Source: Escherichia coli (GTDB lineage Bacteria > Pseudomonadota > Gammaproteobacteria > Enterobacterales > Enterobacteriaceae). Taken from it: a DNA stretch of 64,000 nt. Location: NCBI RefSeq assembly GCF_003018235.1, contig NZ_CP027437.1, one strand, 5' to 3'. The notes below the pieces were generated by a model, which was given only the letters and a program-made list of their open reading frames with translations, had not been told where the DNA came from and did not search any database. The position numbers were made by a program, and so were the translations under genes. Shown piece by piece: positions 15,260 through 60,618 of the stretch. Position 1 is the first letter of the stretch. The number at the start of each line of letters is the position of its first letter.

Positions 15260-16027
15260 ATGTGGATTGGCATAATTAGCCTGTTTCCTGAAATGTTCCG
15301 CGCAATTACCGATTACGGGGTAACTGGCCGGGCAGTTAAAAATGGCCTGCTGAGCATCCAGAGCTGGAGTCCTCGCGACTTCACGCATGACCGGCACCGT
15401 ACCGTGGACGATCGTCCTTACGGCGGCGGACCGGGGATGTTAATGATGGTGCAACCCTTGCGGGACGCCATTCATGCAGCAAAAGCCGCGGCGGGTGAAG
15501 GCGCAAAGGTGATTTATCTGTCACCACAGGGACGCAAGCTTGATCAAGCGGGCGTCAGCGAACTGGCAACGAATCAAAAATTGATTCTGGTGTGCGGTCG
15601 CTACGAAGGTATAGATGAGCGCGTGATCCAAACCGAAATTGACGAAGAATGGTCAATCGGCGATTACGTTCTCAGTGGTGGTGAGTTACCAGCAATGACG
15701 CTGATTGACTCCGTTTCCCGGTTTATTCCGGGAGTACTGGGACATGAAGCTTCGGCAACGGAAGATTCCTTTGCTGAAGGATTGCTGGATTGCCCGCACT
15801 ATACGCGGCCTGAGGTGTTAGAAGGAATGGAAGTTCCGCCAGTGTTACTGTCGGGCAACCATGCCGAGATACGTCGCTGGCGTTTGAAACAGTCGCTGGG
15901 CCGTACCTGGCTTAGAAGACCTGAACTTCTGGAAAACCTGGCTCTGACTGAAGAGCAAGCAAGGTTGCTGGCGGAGTTCAAAAAGGAACACGCACAACAG
16001 CAACATAAACATGATGGGATGGCGTAA
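15260..16027 (+). CDS. trmD: tRNA (guanine37-N1)-methyltransferase TrmD
   Basis: 255 aa, SPOUT-fold motifs. Confidence 0.97.
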
Positions 16028-22852: not shown

Positions 22853-22874
22853 AGTGTTGCCTTTTTGTTATCAA

Positions 22875-22903
22875 TAAAAAAGGCCCCCCGATTTGGGAGG
22901 CCT
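22875..22903 (-). terminator. pheA attenuator terminator
   Basis: On the minus strand AGGCCTCCCAAATCGGGGGGCCT hairpin followed by TTTTTT, between the pheL stop and pheA start. Confidence 0.6.
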
Positions 22904-22950
22904 TATTGTTCGTCTTCGCATTCTGTTTCACACGACGAAACGCCTCCCAT

Positions 22951-22998
22951 TCAGGGGAAGGTAAAAAAGAATGCGAAGAAAAACGGTGTGTGTTTCAT
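22951..22998 (-). CDS. pheL: pheA leader peptide
   Basis: Encodes MKHTPFFFAFFFTFP* (Phe-rich 15-aa leader). Confidence 0.9.
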   Translation of the reverse strand: MKHTPFFFAFFFTFP

Positions 22999-23163
22999 GT
23001 TTGTTTCCTTAAGTGACTTCAGTACAGTACCCGTACTGTTTTCACGCTGTCAACAAAAAACGCGCCCGAAGGTGCTTTAATGAGGAGTGCCGCTTCTTTA
23101 TGTCTGTGAATTATCAACAACTTACGGGGAAACATAACCGCAAGAAGCGACAAGAAATTACAA

Positions 23164-25485: not shown

Positions 25486-26281
25486 ACACAGGAAAGTTAT
25501 GGGCTTGTGTGATTCAGAAAGTGTGAGGTTACGTGCAAAATGGCCAGACATGTAAAAAAGAACTTGAATGCAGTGTCGGCATGGTGGTATTTTTCATCTG
25601 CTGCCACAGTGCTGGCAGTCGGGAATACCACCCCGTATGTGTCAACGGCGACATCAGACGCCGCAAGCGTCTTTTTTGTTGTCGTAACCTTATACGCCAT
25701 GAAGCTCCATTTTATGGTGCGGTGTTATCCATTAAGAGCCGTTGCAAGCGCCTCTACCGGAAGGGGCTGGATAACATCCACCACCATGTCAATGGTAGCT
25801 CAGGCGGGGCCGACTTCGGTCGGGCCGGTTTCCGTTGGCACCGGTAGTGGTATCCCCGTCTGGGCTATCGCCAGTGAGCATACCACCTCCTGCGATAGCA
25901 GTATGTTATGTCAACGGAGGCTGCCTGAATGGCTACAATCCCAACCCAAAAGCGCCCAAAATCCGCGCTCCCCCAGCTCAGCAGTGACTGTCGTCGCCGG
26001 ATACACCGTGTGCAGATGGTTACGCTCCATTATTACATTCAGTGTCTCGCTGATAATCCGTGTTCAGTTGATTTTTGTTTTCCGTACTTATTGTCTTACA
26101 TCCACGATGATATTAAGGCTATAGATAATGAGTTAATTTCTCTTGGCCTGTTTGAACAGGCGATGGGAAAGAAAAAACGACGATAGTTTTCATCGTTATT
26201 AATTAACGTTGTCAGGAAGTATTAAACACACCGCTCACGCGGCGGGAATCTTACATCTTAAATATCTGACGAGGTGGAAAC

Positions 26282-32401: not shown

Positions 32402-32894
32402 CCACGGATAAAGAGAACTAAATTTCGTCAGAATTAACAGGAAATAACTGGAACGAAAAATACACCGCTTACGCGGCGGGGTTTCTGCAACCTTAAAACA
32501 GGGTAAGAGAAATGGCAGAGATGATGAACAATAAACTCTTCATAACCAGTCTCTTTAAGTTGACTGGCCGGGAGTAACGACCAGTGGCAATACAAAAAAA
32601 CCGCTTGCCAGCGTTTGTCTGGTCGGGTTACATTTCCCGTGCACCTCATAAAACGGGTGCCGGGATTCTCAACCCGCAGAAGAACAGAGCGCATAACCGC
32701 GCCAGCGGTTTTTTTATGCGTGCCGTATCGTCACACCTTTTTCGCACACGAATTATGGCGGGGCGTACGGGGCCGACTTCGGTCGGGCCGGATCCTCTGT
32801 TCTCCGGTGTTGAGAACCCCGTACGTCTCGCCACCCCGAGATTCTCAACTCTGGATGGTGAGTTATGTCTATCACTGAACAGAGGTTACCCCTT

Positions 32895-39457: not shown

Positions 39458-39534
39458 GCGCCGTTAGCTCAGCTGGACAGAGCAATTGCCTTCTAAGCAA
39501 TCGGTCACTGGTTCGAATCCAGTATGGCGCACCA
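39458..39534 (+). tRNA. tRNA-Arg (anticodon UCU)
   Basis: Manual cloverleaf: acceptor GCGCCGT/ATGGCGC, D-arm GCTC..GAGC, anticodon loop CTTCTAA, T-arm ACTGG-TTCGAAT-CCAGT, CCA end. Confidence 0.85.
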
Positions 39535-39535
39535 T

Positions 39536-39610
39536 GCGGTCATCGTATAATGGCTATTACCTCGGCCTTCCAGGCTGATGATGCGGGTTCGATTCCAGCT
39601 GGCCGCTCCA
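39536..39610 (+). tRNA. tRNA-Gly (anticodon UCC)
   Basis: Manual cloverleaf: acceptor GCGGTCA/TGGCCGC, anticodon loop CTTCCAG, T-loop TTCGATT, CCA end; close to glyT tRNA as I recall it. Confidence 0.8.
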
Positions 39611-39768: not shown

Positions 39769-40321
39769 TATTTTTAGTATTTAGCCAGAGTGGCCCAAAC
39801 AGAAAATAAAGTTACTGTGAAACAGGGGGGCCTAATAAAAATAATCACCACTAAATTCGGGGCTTTAAAAATGCTAAGAACATCACATTTCATTATGCCG
39901 GGTACTGGAGAATAACATGATGTTTTGTTAAAAATGATTTTGCATGGTGAATCCCCCTGTGCGGCGGGGCATAATGACAGATGTTTGGTTGCGTATTGTA
40001 TAGGCAAGTTGCGGATTCTGTCTGGTCATTGCAGAATTCACCGGGAGGCACCCGGCACCATGCAGATAATTGTTTTGTGGATGATAATACCAGCCCCTCT
40101 CCGGAGGGGCTTTCTTATGGGCGAAAAAAAGCCCGGGGAGCCGGGCAATAGCATGAGATATACGTTTTTATAGACGTACAGATTTTAATCAGAATTTATG
40201 GGGCTGCGCAACTGCGTGGCCTTTTTTGTTTTGTGGGCTAAGGTTTTCCCCTTTGATTCGCCATGTGGCTGAACCTGTAGCCCGCCACTGTTCAGACGCA
40301 ATCCCGGCAAGGGGAGGAATA

Positions 40322-55163: not shown

Positions 55164-55471
55164 TTTTTGCCCTGCAACTGGCGCGCGAGATGGGCCGTCC
55201 TGACTGGCGTGCCATGCTGGCCGGGATGTCATCAACCGAGTATTCCGACTGGCGTCATTTTTACCGCACGCATTATTTTCAGGATGCACAACTGGATATG
55301 CATTTTGCCGGGCTGACGTATGCCGTACTCAGCCTGTTTTTTGCCGATCCTGATATGAGTCCGTCTGATTTCAGCCTGCTGAACCGGCGTGGTGCTGAAG
55401 AAGAGCCTGAAGATGATGTGCTGATGTCGGTATCAGAAGGTATAGCAGGAGGTGTCCGCTATGGCGGGTAA
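54747..55471 (+). CDS. T: Tail assembly chaperone gpG-T fusion via programmed -1 ribosomal frameshift at A_AAA_AAG (55139-55145)
   Basis: Slippery heptamer in G frame near G 3' end; T reading frame (frame 2) open from the site to 55471. Confidence 0.75.
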
Positions 55472-58058
55472 CTTTGCAGATCTGACAGCAATTCTGACCC
55501 TGGATTCCACCCGCTTTTCTGAAGAAATGGGGCGGGTGAAAAAAGAGCTTGGCGAAACCAGCTCACTGGCAGACACGATGTCAGGCAAGGTCAGCCAGTC
55601 CCTGAATAAATCCGCAGAGGCCATTGAGCAGAGTCTGAGCCGTCAGGCGCTGGCCGCACAGAAAGCGGGGATTTCCGTCGGGCAGTATAAAGCCGCCATG
55701 CGTATGCTGCCTGCACAGTTCACGGATGTCGCCACGCAGCTTGCAGGCGGGCAAAGTCCGTGGCTGATCATGCTGCAACAGGGGGGCCAGGTGAAGGACT
55801 CCTTTGGCGGGATAATCCCTATGTTCAGGAGCCTTGCCGGTGCTGTCACCCTGCCGATGGCCGGGCTCACCTCGCTGGCGGTGGCGACAGGTGCGCTGGT
55901 GTATGCCTGGTACAAGGGTGATACCGTCCTGTCTGAATTTAATAAAACGCTGGTTCTTTCCGGTAATCAGTCGGGACTGACGGCAGATCGTATGTTGTCC
56001 CTGACCAGAGCCGGGCAGGCGGCAGGGCTGACGTTTAACCAGACCAGTGAGGCACTGACGGCGCTGGTGAATGCCGGTGTGCGTGGTGGTGAGCAGTTTG
56101 AAGCCATCAGCCAGAGTGTGGCACGTTTCTCCGCCGCATCGGGTGTGGAGGTGGACAAGGTTGCTGAAGCCTTCGGGAAGCTGACCACCGACCCGACGTC
56201 GGGGCTGACGGCGATGGCGCACCAGTTCCATAACGTGACGGCGGAGCAGATTGCGTATGTTGCTCAGTTGCAGCGTTCCGGCGATGAAGCCGGGGCATTG
56301 CAGGCGGCGAACGAGGCCGCAACGAAAGGGTTTGATGACCAGACCCGCCGCCTGAAAGAAAACATGGGGACACTGGAGACCTGGGCAGACAGGACAGCAC
56401 GGGCATTCAAATCCATGTGGGATGCGGTGCTGGATATTGGTCGTCCTGATACCGCGCAGGAGATGCTGATTAAGGCAGAGGCCGCGTTTAAGAAAGCGGA
56501 CGATATCTGGAATCTGCGCAAGGATGATTATTTTGTTAACGATGAAGCGCGGGCGCGTTACTGGGATGATCGTGAAAAGGCCCGTCTTGCGCTTGAAGCC
56601 GCCAGAAAGAAGGCAGAACAGCAGAGTCAACAGGACAAAAATGCGCAGCAGCAGAGCGATACCGAAGCGTCACGGCTGAAATATACCGAAGAGGCGCAGA
56701 AGGCTTACGAACGGCTGCAGACGCCGCTGGAAAAATACACCGCCCGTCAGGAGGAGCTGAATAAAGCCCTGAAGGCCGGGAAAATCCTGCAGGCGGACTA
56801 CAACACGCTGATGGCGGCGGCGAAAAAGGACTATGAGTCGACGCTGAAAAAGCCGAAACAGTCAGGCGTGAAAGTGTCAGCAGGCGATCGTCAGGAGGAC
56901 AACACCCGTACAGCGCTGCTGGCGCTGCAGACTGAGCTGCGGACACTTCAGGCCCACGCCGGGGCGAATGAAAAAATCAGCCAGCAGCGTCGGGAACTGT
57001 GGAAGGCGGAAAGTCAGTATGCGGTACTGGCGGAGGCGGCACAACGTCGCCAGTTATCCGCACAGGAGAAATCCCTGCTGGCGCATAAAGACGAGACGCT
57101 GGAGTACAGACGCCAGCTGGCTGACCTGGGCGACAAGGTTGAATACCAGAAACGGCTGAACGAGCTGGCAGACCAGGCGGAGAAATTTGCACAGCAGCAG
57201 CGGGCAAAACAGGCTGCCATCAGTGCAAAAGGCAGGGGGCTGACTGACAGGCAGGCGCAGCGGGAGTCAGAAGAGCAGCGGTTGCGCGAGGTGTATGGTG
57301 ATAATCCGCAGGCGCTGGTGAAGGCAACAGGTGCGCTGAAACAGACATGGGCTTCGGAAGACCAGCTGAATGGCAGCTGGATGGCCGGGCTTCAGTCGGG
57401 CTGGAGCCAGTGGGCTGAGAGTGCGATGGACAGTTTTTCGCAGGTGAAAAGTGTGTCCATGCAGACCTTTGACGGGATTGCGCAGAATATGGCAGCAATG
57501 CTGACCGGCAGTGAACAGAACTGGCGCAGCTTCACCCGTTCGGTGTTGTCGATGCTGACAGAAATTCTGCTGAAGCAGGCCATGGCCGGAATGGTCGGAA
57601 GTGCGATCAGTGCCATTGGCAGCGCTTTCGGCGGTGGTGCGTCGGCTTCAGCCGGTACGGCCATTCAGGCTGCGGCGGCGAACTTCCATTTTGCGACCGG
57701 AGGATTTACGGGCACGGGTGGCAAATATGAGCCTGCGGGGATTGTTCACCGCGGGGAGTTTGTCTTCACGAAGGAGGCAACCAGCCGGATTGGTGTCGGT
57801 AACCTGTACCGCCTGATGCGGGGCTATGCGGAAGGTGGTTATGTGGGCGGTGCCGGAAGTCCGGCGCAGATGCGGCGGGCGGAAGGTATCCGGTTTGAGC
57901 AGAACAACAGCGTGGTGATTCAGAACGACGGTACCAACGGGCAGGCGGGACCGCAACTGATGAAGGCGGTGTATGACATGGCCCGCAAAGGGGCGCAGGA
58001 TGAGATTCAGGCGCAGATGCGTGATGGCGGCGTATTTTCCGGAGGAGGTGGACGATGA
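55461..58058 (+). CDS. H: Tail tape measure protein gpH
   Basis: AGGAGGTG SD; long stretches matching lambda H (LSRQALAAQKAGISVGQYKAAMRMLPAQFTDVATQLAGGQSPWLI). Confidence 0.9.
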   Translation: MAGNFADLTAILTLDSTRFSEEMGRVKKELGETSSLADTMSGKVSQSLNKSAEAIEQSLSRQALAAQKAGISVGQYKAAMRMLPAQFTDVATQLAGGQSPWLIMLQQGGQVKDSFGGIIPMFRSLAGAVTLPMAGLTSLAVATGALVYAWYKGDTVLSEFNKTLVLSGNQSGLTADRMLSLTRAGQAAGLTFNQTSEALTALVNAGVRGGEQFEAISQSVARFSAASGVEVDKVAEAFGKLTTDPTSGLTAMAHQFHNVTAEQIAYVAQLQRSGDEAGALQAANEAATKGFDDQTRRLKENMGTLETWADRTARAFKSMWDAVLDIGRPDTAQEMLIKAEAAFKKADDIWNLRKDDYFVNDEARARYWDDREKARLALEAARKKAEQQSQQDKNAQQQSDTEASRLKYTEEAQKAYERLQTPLEKYTARQEELNKALKAGKILQADYNTLMAAAKKDYESTLKKPKQSGVKVSAGDRQEDNTRTALLALQTELRTLQAHAGANEKISQQRRELWKAESQYAVLAEAAQRRQLSAQEKSLLAHKDETLEYRRQLADLGDKVEYQKRLNELADQAEKFAQQQRAKQAAISAKGRGLTDRQAQRESEEQRLREVYGDNPQALVKATGALKQTWASEDQLNGSWMAGLQSGWSQWAESAMDSFSQVKSVSMQTFDGIAQNMAAMLTGSEQNWRSFTRSVLSMLTEILLKQAMAGMVGSAISAIGSAFGGGASASAGTAIQAAAANFHFATGGFTGTGGKYEPAGIVHRGEFVFTKEATSRIGVGNLYRLMRGYAEGGYVGGAGSPAQMRRAEGIRFEQNNSVVIQNDGTNGQAGPQLMKAVYDMARKGAQDEIQAQMRDGGVFSGGGGR

Positions 58059-59087: not shown

Positions 59088-59831
59088 ATGAAACAGACAG
59101 AATCAGACATTCTGGCGCATGCCCGGCGGTGTGCGCCAGCGGAGTCGTGCGGCTTCGTGATAACCACGCCGGAGGGTGAACGGTACCAGCCGTGTGTGAA
59201 TATTTCCGCAGAGCCGGAGGCGTATTTTCGTATTGCTCCGGAAGACTGGCTGCGGGCGAAGATGTCGGGGGAGATTGTGGCGCTGGTCCACAGTCATCCC
59301 GGCGGCCTGGCCTGGCTGAGTGAGGCAGACCGGCGTCTGCAGATAAAAAGCGCACTGTCCTGGTGGCTGGTCTGCCGGGGAGACATTCATAAATTCCGCT
59401 GTGTTCCACACCTGACCGGGCGGCGTTTTGAGCACGGGGTGACGGACTGTTACACGCTGTTCCGGGATGCATACCATCTGGCGGGGATTGAGATGCCGGA
59501 TTTTCACCGCGAGGATGAGTGGTGGCGAAACGGTCAGAACCTGTACCTGGACAATATGGAGGCAACGGGCTTTTACCGGGTGCCCCTGTCCTCTGCACAG
59601 GCGGGCGATATTCTGCTGTGCTGCTTTGGTTCATCGGTACCGAACCATGCCGCGGTTTACTGTGGCAACGGCGAGCTGCTTCACCATATACCTGAACAAC
59701 TGAGTAAACGGGAGAGGTATTCCGAAAAATGGCAACGACGAACGCATTCAGTCTGGCGTCACCGCCACTGGCACGCATCTGCCTTCACGGGGATTTACAA
59801 CGATTTGGCCGCCGCATCAGCCTGTATGTGA
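59088..59831 (+). CDS. K: Tail assembly protein gpK (NlpC/P60-MPN)
   Basis: HSHP motif (LVHSHPGG); position between L and I. Confidence 0.85.
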   Translation: MKQTESDILAHARRCAPAESCGFVITTPEGERYQPCVNISAEPEAYFRIAPEDWLRAKMSGEIVALVHSHPGGLAWLSEADRRLQIKSALSWWLVCRGDIHKFRCVPHLTGRRFEHGVTDCYTLFRDAYHLAGIEMPDFHREDEWWRNGQNLYLDNMEATGFYRVPLSSAQAGDILLCCFGSSVPNHAAVYCGNGELLHHIPEQLSKRERYSEKWQRRTHSVWRHRHWHASAFTGIYNDLAAASACM

Positions 59832-60373
59832 ACACGGCAGCGGAGGCCATCCGTGCCCTGTCGTTACAGGTGCCCGGTTTTCGCCGTCAGATGAACGAAG
59901 GCTGGTACCGGGTGCGTATTGCCGGTGAGGATACCTCGCCGGAACAGATAATGACACGACTGCATGAGCCGTTGAGCCACGGGGATATCATTCATCTGAT
60001 CCCCCGGACCGAAGGTGCCAAAAGCGGTGGTGTTTTTCAGGCGGTGCTGGGAGCTGCACTGGTTGTTGCCTCCATCTGGATGCCGGGTATCGGTATTGCT
60101 GCCAGCAACATTATGTTTTCCATGGGGGCAGCAATGGCGCTGGGGGGTGTCGCACAACTGCTGGCCCCGAAGGCAAAGACGCCGGAGTACAGAAGCACGG
60201 ATAACGGTAAACAGAACACGTATTTCTCCTCACTGGACAACATGATTGCCCAGGGCAACCCGATGCCGGTGCCTTATGGTGAGATGCTGGTGGGTTCACG
60301 ACGGATATCCCAGGACATCAGCACCCGGGATGAAGGCGGTGACGGAAAAGTGGTGGTTATCGGTCGGGGGTGA
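59729..60373 (+). CDS. I: Tail assembly protein gpI
   Basis: MATTNAFSLASPPLARICLHGDLQRFGRRISL... like lambda I; overlaps K 3' end. Confidence 0.85.
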   Translation: MATTNAFSLASPPLARICLHGDLQRFGRRISLYVNTAAEAIRALSLQVPGFRRQMNEGWYRVRIAGEDTSPEQIMTRLHEPLSHGDIIHLIPRTEGAKSGGVFQAVLGAALVVASIWMPGIGIAASNIMFSMGAAMALGGVAQLLAPKAKTPEYRSTDNGKQNTYFSSLDNMIAQGNPMPVPYGEMLVGSRRISQDISTRDEGGDGKVVVIGRG

Positions 60374-60546
60374 GAATAAAAAAATACCCACAGTGTTGGC
60401 CAGGCTGTGGGGAATACGATGAAAAACCATGTGAAGGAGTTATTTTTATGTACGGTGAAACTGTAACGCTGTGCAATTATCAGCGCCACAGGTATTTTGC
60501 AGAAATGTGAAGAAATTCAGAATTTTTATTCAGTCAGTCAACAGAC

Positions 60547-60575
60547 AGGCACCCCACGGGGTGCCTGTTGTTTTT
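60547..60575 (+). terminator. Rho-independent terminator-like hairpin upstream of J
   Basis: AGGCACCCC-ac-GGGGTGCCT followed by GTTGTTTTT; 44 nt before the J start. Confidence 0.45.
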
Positions 60576-60618
60576 GGGTATAAACAGATTCAGGCATCAG
60601 GCTGGACAGGGGGACAGA

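Follow-up and report, generated by a model that had tools for sequence, protein, structure and literature searches.

The I-J gap and its relatives

The last 9 kb of the window (the whole stretch of 64,000 nucleotides of Escherichia coli DNA analysed here) form a lambda-like tail module with genes H (55452-58058), M, L, K, I and J, and in E. coli O158:H23 CFIAFB20140388 (RefSeq), which is 100% identical, the tail module is annotated alike. Gene I overlaps K, as it does in lambda; RefSeq labels I in NZ_CP076709 as 'tail assembly protein' and starts it later than the ORF list does. The spacer of 245 bp described in the original prediction is confirmed: the TGA of I ends at 60373 and the GTG of J stands at 60619, with the same J start in NZ_CP076709, so that the gap covers 60374-60618. 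The GTG start of J and the AGGGGGA Shine-Dalgarno (SD) sequence before it are also present as described. The first 150 amino acids of J are 75-76% identical to J of the lambda group; the open reading frame comprises 1098 codons and its C-terminal part is divergent. In the identical genome, RefSeq treats J as a pseudogene that lacks its C-terminus. The features of the gap and its surroundings are as follows.

59729-60373, plus strand: tail assembly gene I, from the ORF list (stop codon TGA at 60371-60373)
about 60453 to 60378, minus strand: sRNA gene of about 76 nt, assigned to the PasB/EcOnc22 family by position, strand, a covariance model and about 71% identity
60387-60411, minus strand: predicted terminator hairpin of the sRNA, CCCACAG / 11-nt loop / CUGUGGG (7-pair stem, predicted on 45 sequences)
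60460-60465, minus strand: putative -10 box of the sRNA, TACAGT (each of the 45 unique spacers has a TAnnnT hexamer aligned here)
60503-60524: CRP-like site AAATGTGAagaaatTCAGAATT, TGTGA-N6-TCAGA (core 60506-60521, centre 60513.5)
60544-60575, plus strand: probable sense intrinsic terminator, GACAGGCACCC-CACG-GGGTGCCTGTT, 44 nt upstream of J
60576-60618, plus strand: GTG-type leader of J, in which a 7-mer occurs twice (CAGGCAT/CAGGCTG) and the SD sequence AGGGGGA stands at 60608-60614
60619-63915, plus strand: host-specificity or tail-tip gene J (GTG start; ORF and RefSeq starts identical)
63953-63978, plus strand: second strong sense terminator found by the terminator scan, GGGCACCAGAAATGGTGCCT TTTTTATT

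Outside the tail module, and upstream of the late genes, there are two tRNA genes (39458-39531 and 39536-39607) and an STnc100 sRNA (39912-40122, 145.6 bits). C4 antisense RNA is matched twice (in the regions 25788-25875 and 32641-32838; 74 and 77 bits) and isrK once (65 bits), immediately before the second C4 match, which points to P1/P7-type immunity RNAs belonging to one or two additional prophage or satellite elements. The presence of the tmRNA gene ssrA (minus strand, 295 bits) and of a Phe leader (minus strand, 132 bits), at 4756-5118 and 22874-22999, indicates that the window includes landmarks of the chromosome in addition to prophage DNA; prophages and islands classically integrate at ssrA.

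The 245-bp gap matches 1840 of 5426 complete E. coli genomes, in up to 10 places per genome, and is unannotated among the matches listed. The version found in the window is rare, with five genomes carrying it at 90% identity or more. A further 147 phage records, mostly of Stx-converting phages, match at 74-78% identity. For comparative analysis we collected 80 IMG/VR loci by the N-terminus of J and 25 by motif, which yielded 100 I-J gaps, 55 of them unique. Most gaps measure 237-263 nt, one 298 nt, and ten about 854 nt. The alignments comprise 45 unique short gaps. Because the 80 loci were selected at 94-96% identity of the J N-terminus, the 45 spacers are related to one another, and the covariation seen in them reflects few events. 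Mean pairwise identity among the 45 spacers differs from segment to segment:

sRNA body: 0.49-0.67
sRNA terminator arms: 0.94-0.96 (loop 0.51)
CRP-like 22-mer, 60503-60524: 0.92
19 nt after the CRP-like 22-mer: 0.91
sense hairpin arms: 0.86-0.90
sense T-run: 0.93
J leader: 0.63

A probable antisense sRNA gene and its putative promoter

The original prediction was made on the sense strand only, and for this reason the main content of the gap, an sRNA gene on the opposite strand, was overlooked. Part of the gene had been noticed as a CCCACAG/CTGTGGG hairpin. The hairpin exists, with its arms at 60387-60393 and 60405-60411, about 9 nt away from the position given for it (60396-60420). The T-run that belongs to it is on the minus strand, where it corresponds to a plus-strand A-run at 60378-60384, and the hairpin is therefore a minus-strand terminator. 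On that strand UAUUUUUUUA (60386-60377) comes after it, the terminator being made up of the seven-pair stem and UAUUUUUUU. We predict that the sRNA starts 7 nt past the -10 box; its 3' end falls within the U-run, a few nucleotides from the stop codon of I.

We place the sRNA gene on the basis of comparative evidence, namely the terminator stem, the TAnnnT hexamer and a covariance model. In the stem, three pairs are changed on both sides among the 45 sequences, including a change from G:C to A:U in the window itself. The covariance model (R1), built from 30 distinct RNAs of the family with the window excluded, scores 55.7 bits (E about 9e-8) at 60457-60377 on the minus strand and has no other match in the 64 kb. 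As a whole, the sRNA shows no unusual folding stability (z = -0.85). With Rfam release 15, neither E-value nor gathering thresholds gave a family in the I-J gap; the nearest match, to IRES_Bip, lies inside gene I and was judged to be due to chance.

Two sets of published RNAs come from the same locus. PasB is an RNA of 83 nt encoded at NC_011601 1466343..1466261(-), between E2348C_1436 and E2348C_1437 and in opposite orientation to them (Pearl Mizrahi et al., 2021; PMC8550237, table S6). It was confirmed by Northern blotting, has log2 fold changes of -6.8 and -2.4 without Hfq, and takes part in 37 RIL-seq interactions (PMC8550237); it is also treated in a preprint (Zhu, Shabalina and Storz, 2026). 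The two flanking genes are I (ending at 1466255) and J (starting at 1466496) of prophage PP6 of EPEC E2348/69, and the PasB gap aligns over its full length with the gap in the window. PasB and the RNA of the window share the I-J slot, the antisense orientation, a 3' end that abuts the stop codon of I, the position of the -10 box, the CRP-like site, the downstream sense terminator and the stretch AACUCCUUCACAU. They differ in sequence (about 71% identity), in the 5' end, which is different and shorter in the window, in the compensatory exchange of G:C for A:U in the stem, in the replacement of GAUCUUCAU by GUUUUUCAU, and in the J leader, which is of the GTG type in the window and of the ATG type next to PasB. 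The published survey of PasB used megablast with a word size of 28 nt and a query coverage above 75%, settings with which divergent variants like that of the window probably fell outside the survey.

EcOnc22, EcOnc23 and EcOnc24, from prophages Sp15, Sp14 and Sp11 of EHEC O157:H7 Sakai, were found as Hfq-CRAC peaks, measure about 85 nt on Northern blots, and are destabilised in an hfq deletion (Tree et al., 2014; PMC4104026). The probe used for them begins GGGAGAGAACGATGAAGATTAAC, a sequence found on the tail-sense strand in the I-J gap of Sp15, beside the CCCGCAG/CTGCGGG hairpin; the RNA detected is therefore antisense to the tail genes. In NC_002695.2 the homologous RNA is displaced by about 128 nt from the published coordinates of EcOnc22 (2902714-2902774), presumably owing to a shift between genome versions, and we relied on the probe sequence instead. 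Locus and strand are common to EcOnc22-24, which are Hfq-bound and Hfq-stabilised, and to the window, whose J leader is of the GTG type seen in Sp15. The middle of the RNA differs (AACUCCAUAACGUUAAUCUUC in EcOnc22-24, AACUCCUUCACAUGGUUUUUC in the window), and the identity of the window RNA to EcOnc22 is again about 71%. PasB and EcOnc22 are 75% identical to each other. From their position, the probe sequence and this identity we infer that they are equivalent, a relation that is not noted in the PasB row of table S6 (PMC8550237).

Judged by sequence, the gene in the window is a divergent member of this known Hfq-dependent PasB/EcOnc22 family. Its divergence extends to the proposed seed, UUAAUCUUC / GAUCUUC, a stretch that is conserved in the family, unpaired and located upstream of the terminator. 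The window does not retain it and carries GGUUUUUC in place of UUAAUCUUC, alone among 31 distinct RNAs, so the targets of its RNA, and possibly its activity, may differ. The AACUCCUU stretch is retained. A conserved 3' end combined with a variable 5' end and middle is also found in the short prophage sRNAs AgvB/AsxR, which belong to the pR' moron site, outside the tail operon; identity with AgvB/AsxR was ruled out by that location and by the different sequences.

The promoter of the sRNA is deduced from conservation and from one RNA-seq 5' end. Among the 45 spacers the -10 hexamer is TACAGT, TAGTGT, TACTTT or TAATGT, and the 5' end seen by RNA-seq in E2348/69 follows the TAnnnT hexamer by 6 nt. 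The promoter scan gave no sigma-70-like site and no recognisable -35 box for the sRNA. The lack of a sigma-70-like site is compatible with an activator-dependent promoter, and the lack of a -35 box with a class I arrangement of the CRP-like site described below. We also considered GATAAT/TATAAT at 60476-60481 as the -10 box and rejected it: the hexamer is not TAnnnT in all variants, the RNA would be longer than that observed, and the CRP site would come to lie about 3 bp off class II spacing.

The core of the CRP-like site, TGTGAagaaatTCAGA, matches TGTGA-N6-TCACA at nine of ten positions, is flanked by AAA and ATT, and is the only match to TGTGA-N6-TCA[C/G]A in the 64-kb window. Both half-sites are retained in all 45 unique spacers, while the 6 nt between them vary. 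The distance from the centre of the site to the edge of the -10 box is 53.5 bp in 43 spacers and 54.5 bp in the other two; in lac, the corresponding distance is 54.5 bp. The 37 bp between the CRP-like site and the -10 box have an identity of 0.66 and fall into seven sequence types. Relative to the 5' end estimated by RNA-seq in E2348/69, the site is centred at -59.5, with the class I reference near -61.5 (or at -71.5, -82.5 and so on), and it would be at -60.5 to -61.5 if transcription started 7-8 nt after the -10 box.

Expression of the relatives bears circumstantially on the same question. PasB reaches a higher level in LB after overnight growth than in DMEM during exponential growth, two conditions that differ in growth phase too. 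Spot 42 (Spf) behaves in the opposite way, being about 5-fold higher in DMEM. Spf is CRP-repressed, and its lower level in LB therefore fits a high CRP activity in that medium. CRP is not mentioned, and no promoter is discussed, in either of the PasB papers.

We propose that a weak sigma-70 promoter with the -10 box TACAGT would start transcription near 60453 on the minus strand and give a body of about 76 nt that contains an unpaired stretch with CUCCUU. The CRP-like site would be centred some 60-61 bp ahead of this start, so that cAMP-CRP probably activates the promoter in a class I-like manner; were this so, the sRNA would be tied to carbon status and stationary phase. The 7-bp hairpin and U7 would end transcription a few nucleotides short of gene I. 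The sRNA would be made in lysogens, where the late operon is silent, and, by analogy with the characterised relatives, it would bind Hfq and pair in trans with mRNAs of the host or of prophages.

The probable sense terminator upstream of J

The strong sense hairpin with a T-run that had been reported 44 nt before J proved sound. It has a 9-bp core (C60546-G60567) that can be extended to 11 pairs (60544-60569), with seven G-C pairs, a 4-nt CACG loop and the tail TTGTTTTT, which reaches 60575. The folding energy is -23.4 kcal/mol (z = -4.5), and none of 200 shuffled sequences was as stable. In terminator scans the hairpin is the top terminator-like site of the 20-kb late region, and the structural operon in the window contains no other strong sense terminator. 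Nine pairs are conserved in the 45 sequences, the T-run is retained, and one pair is C:G in 23 of them and U:A in 17. The same hairpin was considered as a terminator of the minus strand and discarded; its stability there is equal, but no U-run follows on that strand.

A sense promoter within the gap that would feed this terminator was sought by scanning and by manual inspection, and no conserved -10 was found; nor is there a conserved -10 box in the gap for a rightward start with CRP class I or class II geometry. Late transcription in lambdoid phages is Q-antiterminated, and the terminators of the lambda late operon do not stop Q-modified polymerase. The hairpin with its T-run at 60544-60575 is probably an intrinsic terminator that is passed only by Q-modified polymerase. 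We picture it as a separate and older element than the sRNA gene: Q-modified RNA polymerase should pass it in lytic growth, and in the lysogen it should block unmodified sense transcription from J. Given that Q-modified polymerase is terminator-resistant, such a gate, open in lytic growth and closed to stray transcription in the lysogen, is the simplest reading. Together with the terminator directly after the J stop (63953-63978), it means that J is bracketed by terminators.

Upstream of the hairpin, the 19 nt at 60525-60543 (TTTTTATTCAGTCA..., AUUUUUAUUCAGUC...) are conserved to the same degree as the CRP-like site. In this linker a second ATTCAG occurs 13 nt after the first, and the window has a 4-nt CAGT duplication. 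Neither the CRP-like site nor the terminator accounts for the conservation of the linker.

It had also been assumed that J follows I directly in lambda. This is incorrect, because in lambda I extends to 15444 and J begins only at 15505, leaving a gap of 60 nt (15445-15504) with a hairpin and T-run of its own: CCGCCtgcGGGCGG is followed by TTTTGTCATTT, with aaaCCGCCtgcGGGCGGttttgtcattt standing about 27 nt before the ATG of J. Since lambda carries an analogous hairpin, the contrast with lambda is weaker than first stated. Lambda and HK106 both resemble the window in having a GC-rich sense hairpin and then a T-run, 14-44 nt ahead of the J start. They differ from it in that no homology between the hairpins is detectable, in the length of the gaps (60 and about 52 nt), and in having no antisense gene. 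Unrelated hairpins with T-runs thus lie 14-60 nt before J in lambda, in HK106 and in one variant among the collected loci (L015). Erwinia phage Eho49 has no such hairpin before J, and in mEp515 a different gene sits before J. A rho-independent terminator is annotated before I in HK106 (172-192 of locus L113), and an equally good one at 830-855 (GGCCACCttcgGGTGGC + TTTTTT), between I and J, is unannotated. Our literature search did not find a description of a hairpin or terminator between I and J of lambda (or HK106). Sense terminators inside the tail operons of lambdoid phages seem to be common and under-annotated.

Mosaicism of the gap and interpretation

The variable segments of the gap reassort. 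At least nine types of sRNA body and five types of J leader can be told apart in the 45 spacers; the leaders L0, L3 and L4 have GTG and L1 and L2 have ATG. Leaders L0 and L1 are each found together with body type B1 as well as B3, which makes all four combinations, and the promoter-proximal 'mid' types reassort with the body types too. In the window, a unique sRNA body and hairpin variant is joined to the GTG leader of the Sakai Sp15 type. The leader contains a 7-nt tandem unit (CAGACAT / CAGGCAT), of which the window has two copies and loci L076 and L082 have more; with the copy number differing, leader length varies through repeat slippage. The conserved flanks (the sRNA terminator, the CRP site and the sense terminator) may provide the sites where crossover swaps sRNA bodies and J leaders between prophages.

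In ten of the fetched loci the slot also holds a sodC cassette (L039, with a gap of 851 nt, and L045, L048, L049, L059, L062, L086, L089, L095 and L100); the ten gaps are about 854 nt long. These variants keep the sRNA, its terminator and its -10 box, and an antisense SodC gene replaces the CRP site and the sense terminator. The gene encodes a Cu,Zn superoxide dismutase (SodC equivalog NF007628, 218 bits) and has its own terminator. As the sodC variants are without the CRP site and the sense hairpin, neither of the two is indispensable. With sodC in the same place, the I-J junction emerges as a slot that has repeatedly taken up cargo expressed in the lysogen.

The gap has the features of a moron: it is extra DNA at a gene boundary, 245 nt where lambda has 60 nt, with its own promoter and terminator; the predicted promoter, the sRNA and the terminator make up the additional part. 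Morons such as sodC likewise are additional DNA with promoter and terminator between late genes and are expressed in the prophage; the window is unlike them in that its cargo is a non-coding RNA directed against the operon. We consider it likely that the I-J gap is a compact moron-type insert in the late tail operon, composed of an antisense sRNA gene, a CRP-like site, a sense terminator and flanks that act in crossover.

The original prediction had suggested a recombination scar at a mosaic junction. The junction is indeed mosaic, as the reassortment of bodies and leaders demonstrates, and the notion of a scar does not hold, because the gap is a conserved structured module present in 1840 of 5426 genomes. 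In its strict form this explanation would make the spacer a non-functional scar or linker, kept because exchange of tail modules occurs there. The clear reassortment of segments across the gap, a conserved 75-bp block between variable segments, and the acceptance of a sodC cassette in the same slot would all be expected of such a linker, yet we find it improbable: relatives yield an Hfq-bound RNA that is confirmed by Northern blotting, both stems have compensatory changes, the -10 box and the CRP-like half-sites keep a fixed spacing amid varying neighbours, and the module recurs in a third of the complete E. coli genomes, with up to 10 copies in each. The I-J gap is a functional module boundary and not a scar. 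A still less credible proposal is a sense micro-gene that starts with the ATG at 60448, encodes 20 amino acids (MYGETVTLCNYQRHRYFAEM) and is ended by the sense terminator. It would account for an AAGGAG SD sequence 8 nt before the ATG and for the terminator downstream, but most other variants, E2348/69 and Sp15 among them, are without the ATG and the reading frame, the CUCCUU stretch of the sRNA has AAGGAG as its complement, and the promoter scan found no sense promoter.

Other explanations accept the elements and assign them a different role. The original prediction also proposed a device that lowers J expression. In favour of such a device there is a conserved sense terminator; against it, late transcription in lambdoid phages is Q-antiterminated, the spacer variant with sodC is devoid of the hairpin, and lambda has an analogous hairpin. 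The sense hairpin might act in lytic growth and not in the lysogen, either as a partial attenuator or 3'-exonuclease barrier that sets the ratio of upstream tail mRNA to J mRNA and, with the GTG start, keeps J low, or as the source of a sense RNA derived from a 3' end and carrying a U-rich Hfq module. That hairpins with T-runs stand immediately before J in several unrelated sequences, that the 19-nt linker AUUUUUAUUCAGUC... is so well conserved, and that the leader types after the hairpin include those with a GTG start are in keeping with such a function, which we nevertheless regard as unlikely. It is established that Q-modified polymerase is terminator-resistant across the late operon of lambda, there is no conserved sense promoter in the gap, and the sodC variant lives without the hairpin. 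Moreover, no sense-strand Hfq peak is listed in the gap in Sakai (PMC4104026), and there is no IGR RNA for the gap among the entries listed in the EPEC RIL-seq supplements. Somewhat more doubtful is a role of the antisense RNA mainly in cis, in which it would pair with the I-J stretch of the late mRNA and cause cleavage or a block, or in which the late mRNA would soak up the sRNA on induction. In favour of this, the sense transcript just past the stop codon of I is a perfect complement of the sRNA, and the two transcription units are convergent. The body of the sRNA, however, is the least conserved part of the gap, which fits diversifying targets in trans better, although a target in cis would co-vary automatically.

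Our preferred reading, a moron-type insert with an sRNA that acts in trans, can be extended to a more speculative one. It is conceivable, though we advance it tentatively, that the gap is an sRNA cassette in which seeds are swapped by recombination, with a cAMP-CRP promoter, neutralisation of the sRNA by the late mRNA and a Q-dependent gate before J that holds this gene silent in the lysogen.

Recognition of the module explains an odd-looking gap in tail operons. The module occurs in about a third of complete E. coli genomes, often in several copies, and carries no annotation among the matches listed. PasB and EcOnc22-24, two published names that were apparently not linked before, come together in it, and the PasB family extends well beyond the near-identical copies surveyed so far. 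Nothing unusual is implied for the phage itself, whose sense terminator resembles that of lambda. The analysis offers a regulatory hypothesis, the control of a prophage sRNA by cAMP-CRP, and indicates that the I-J junction is a preferred slot for lysogen-expressed cargo, whether sRNA or sodC. If the gap were indeed an exchangeable cassette, an invariant promoter and two invariant terminators would frame a body that prophages exchange and diversify; the late mRNA produced by read-through, perfectly complementary to the sRNAs, would neutralise them on induction; and polylysogens with up to 10 copies would carry differently targeted regulators that respond to carbon status.
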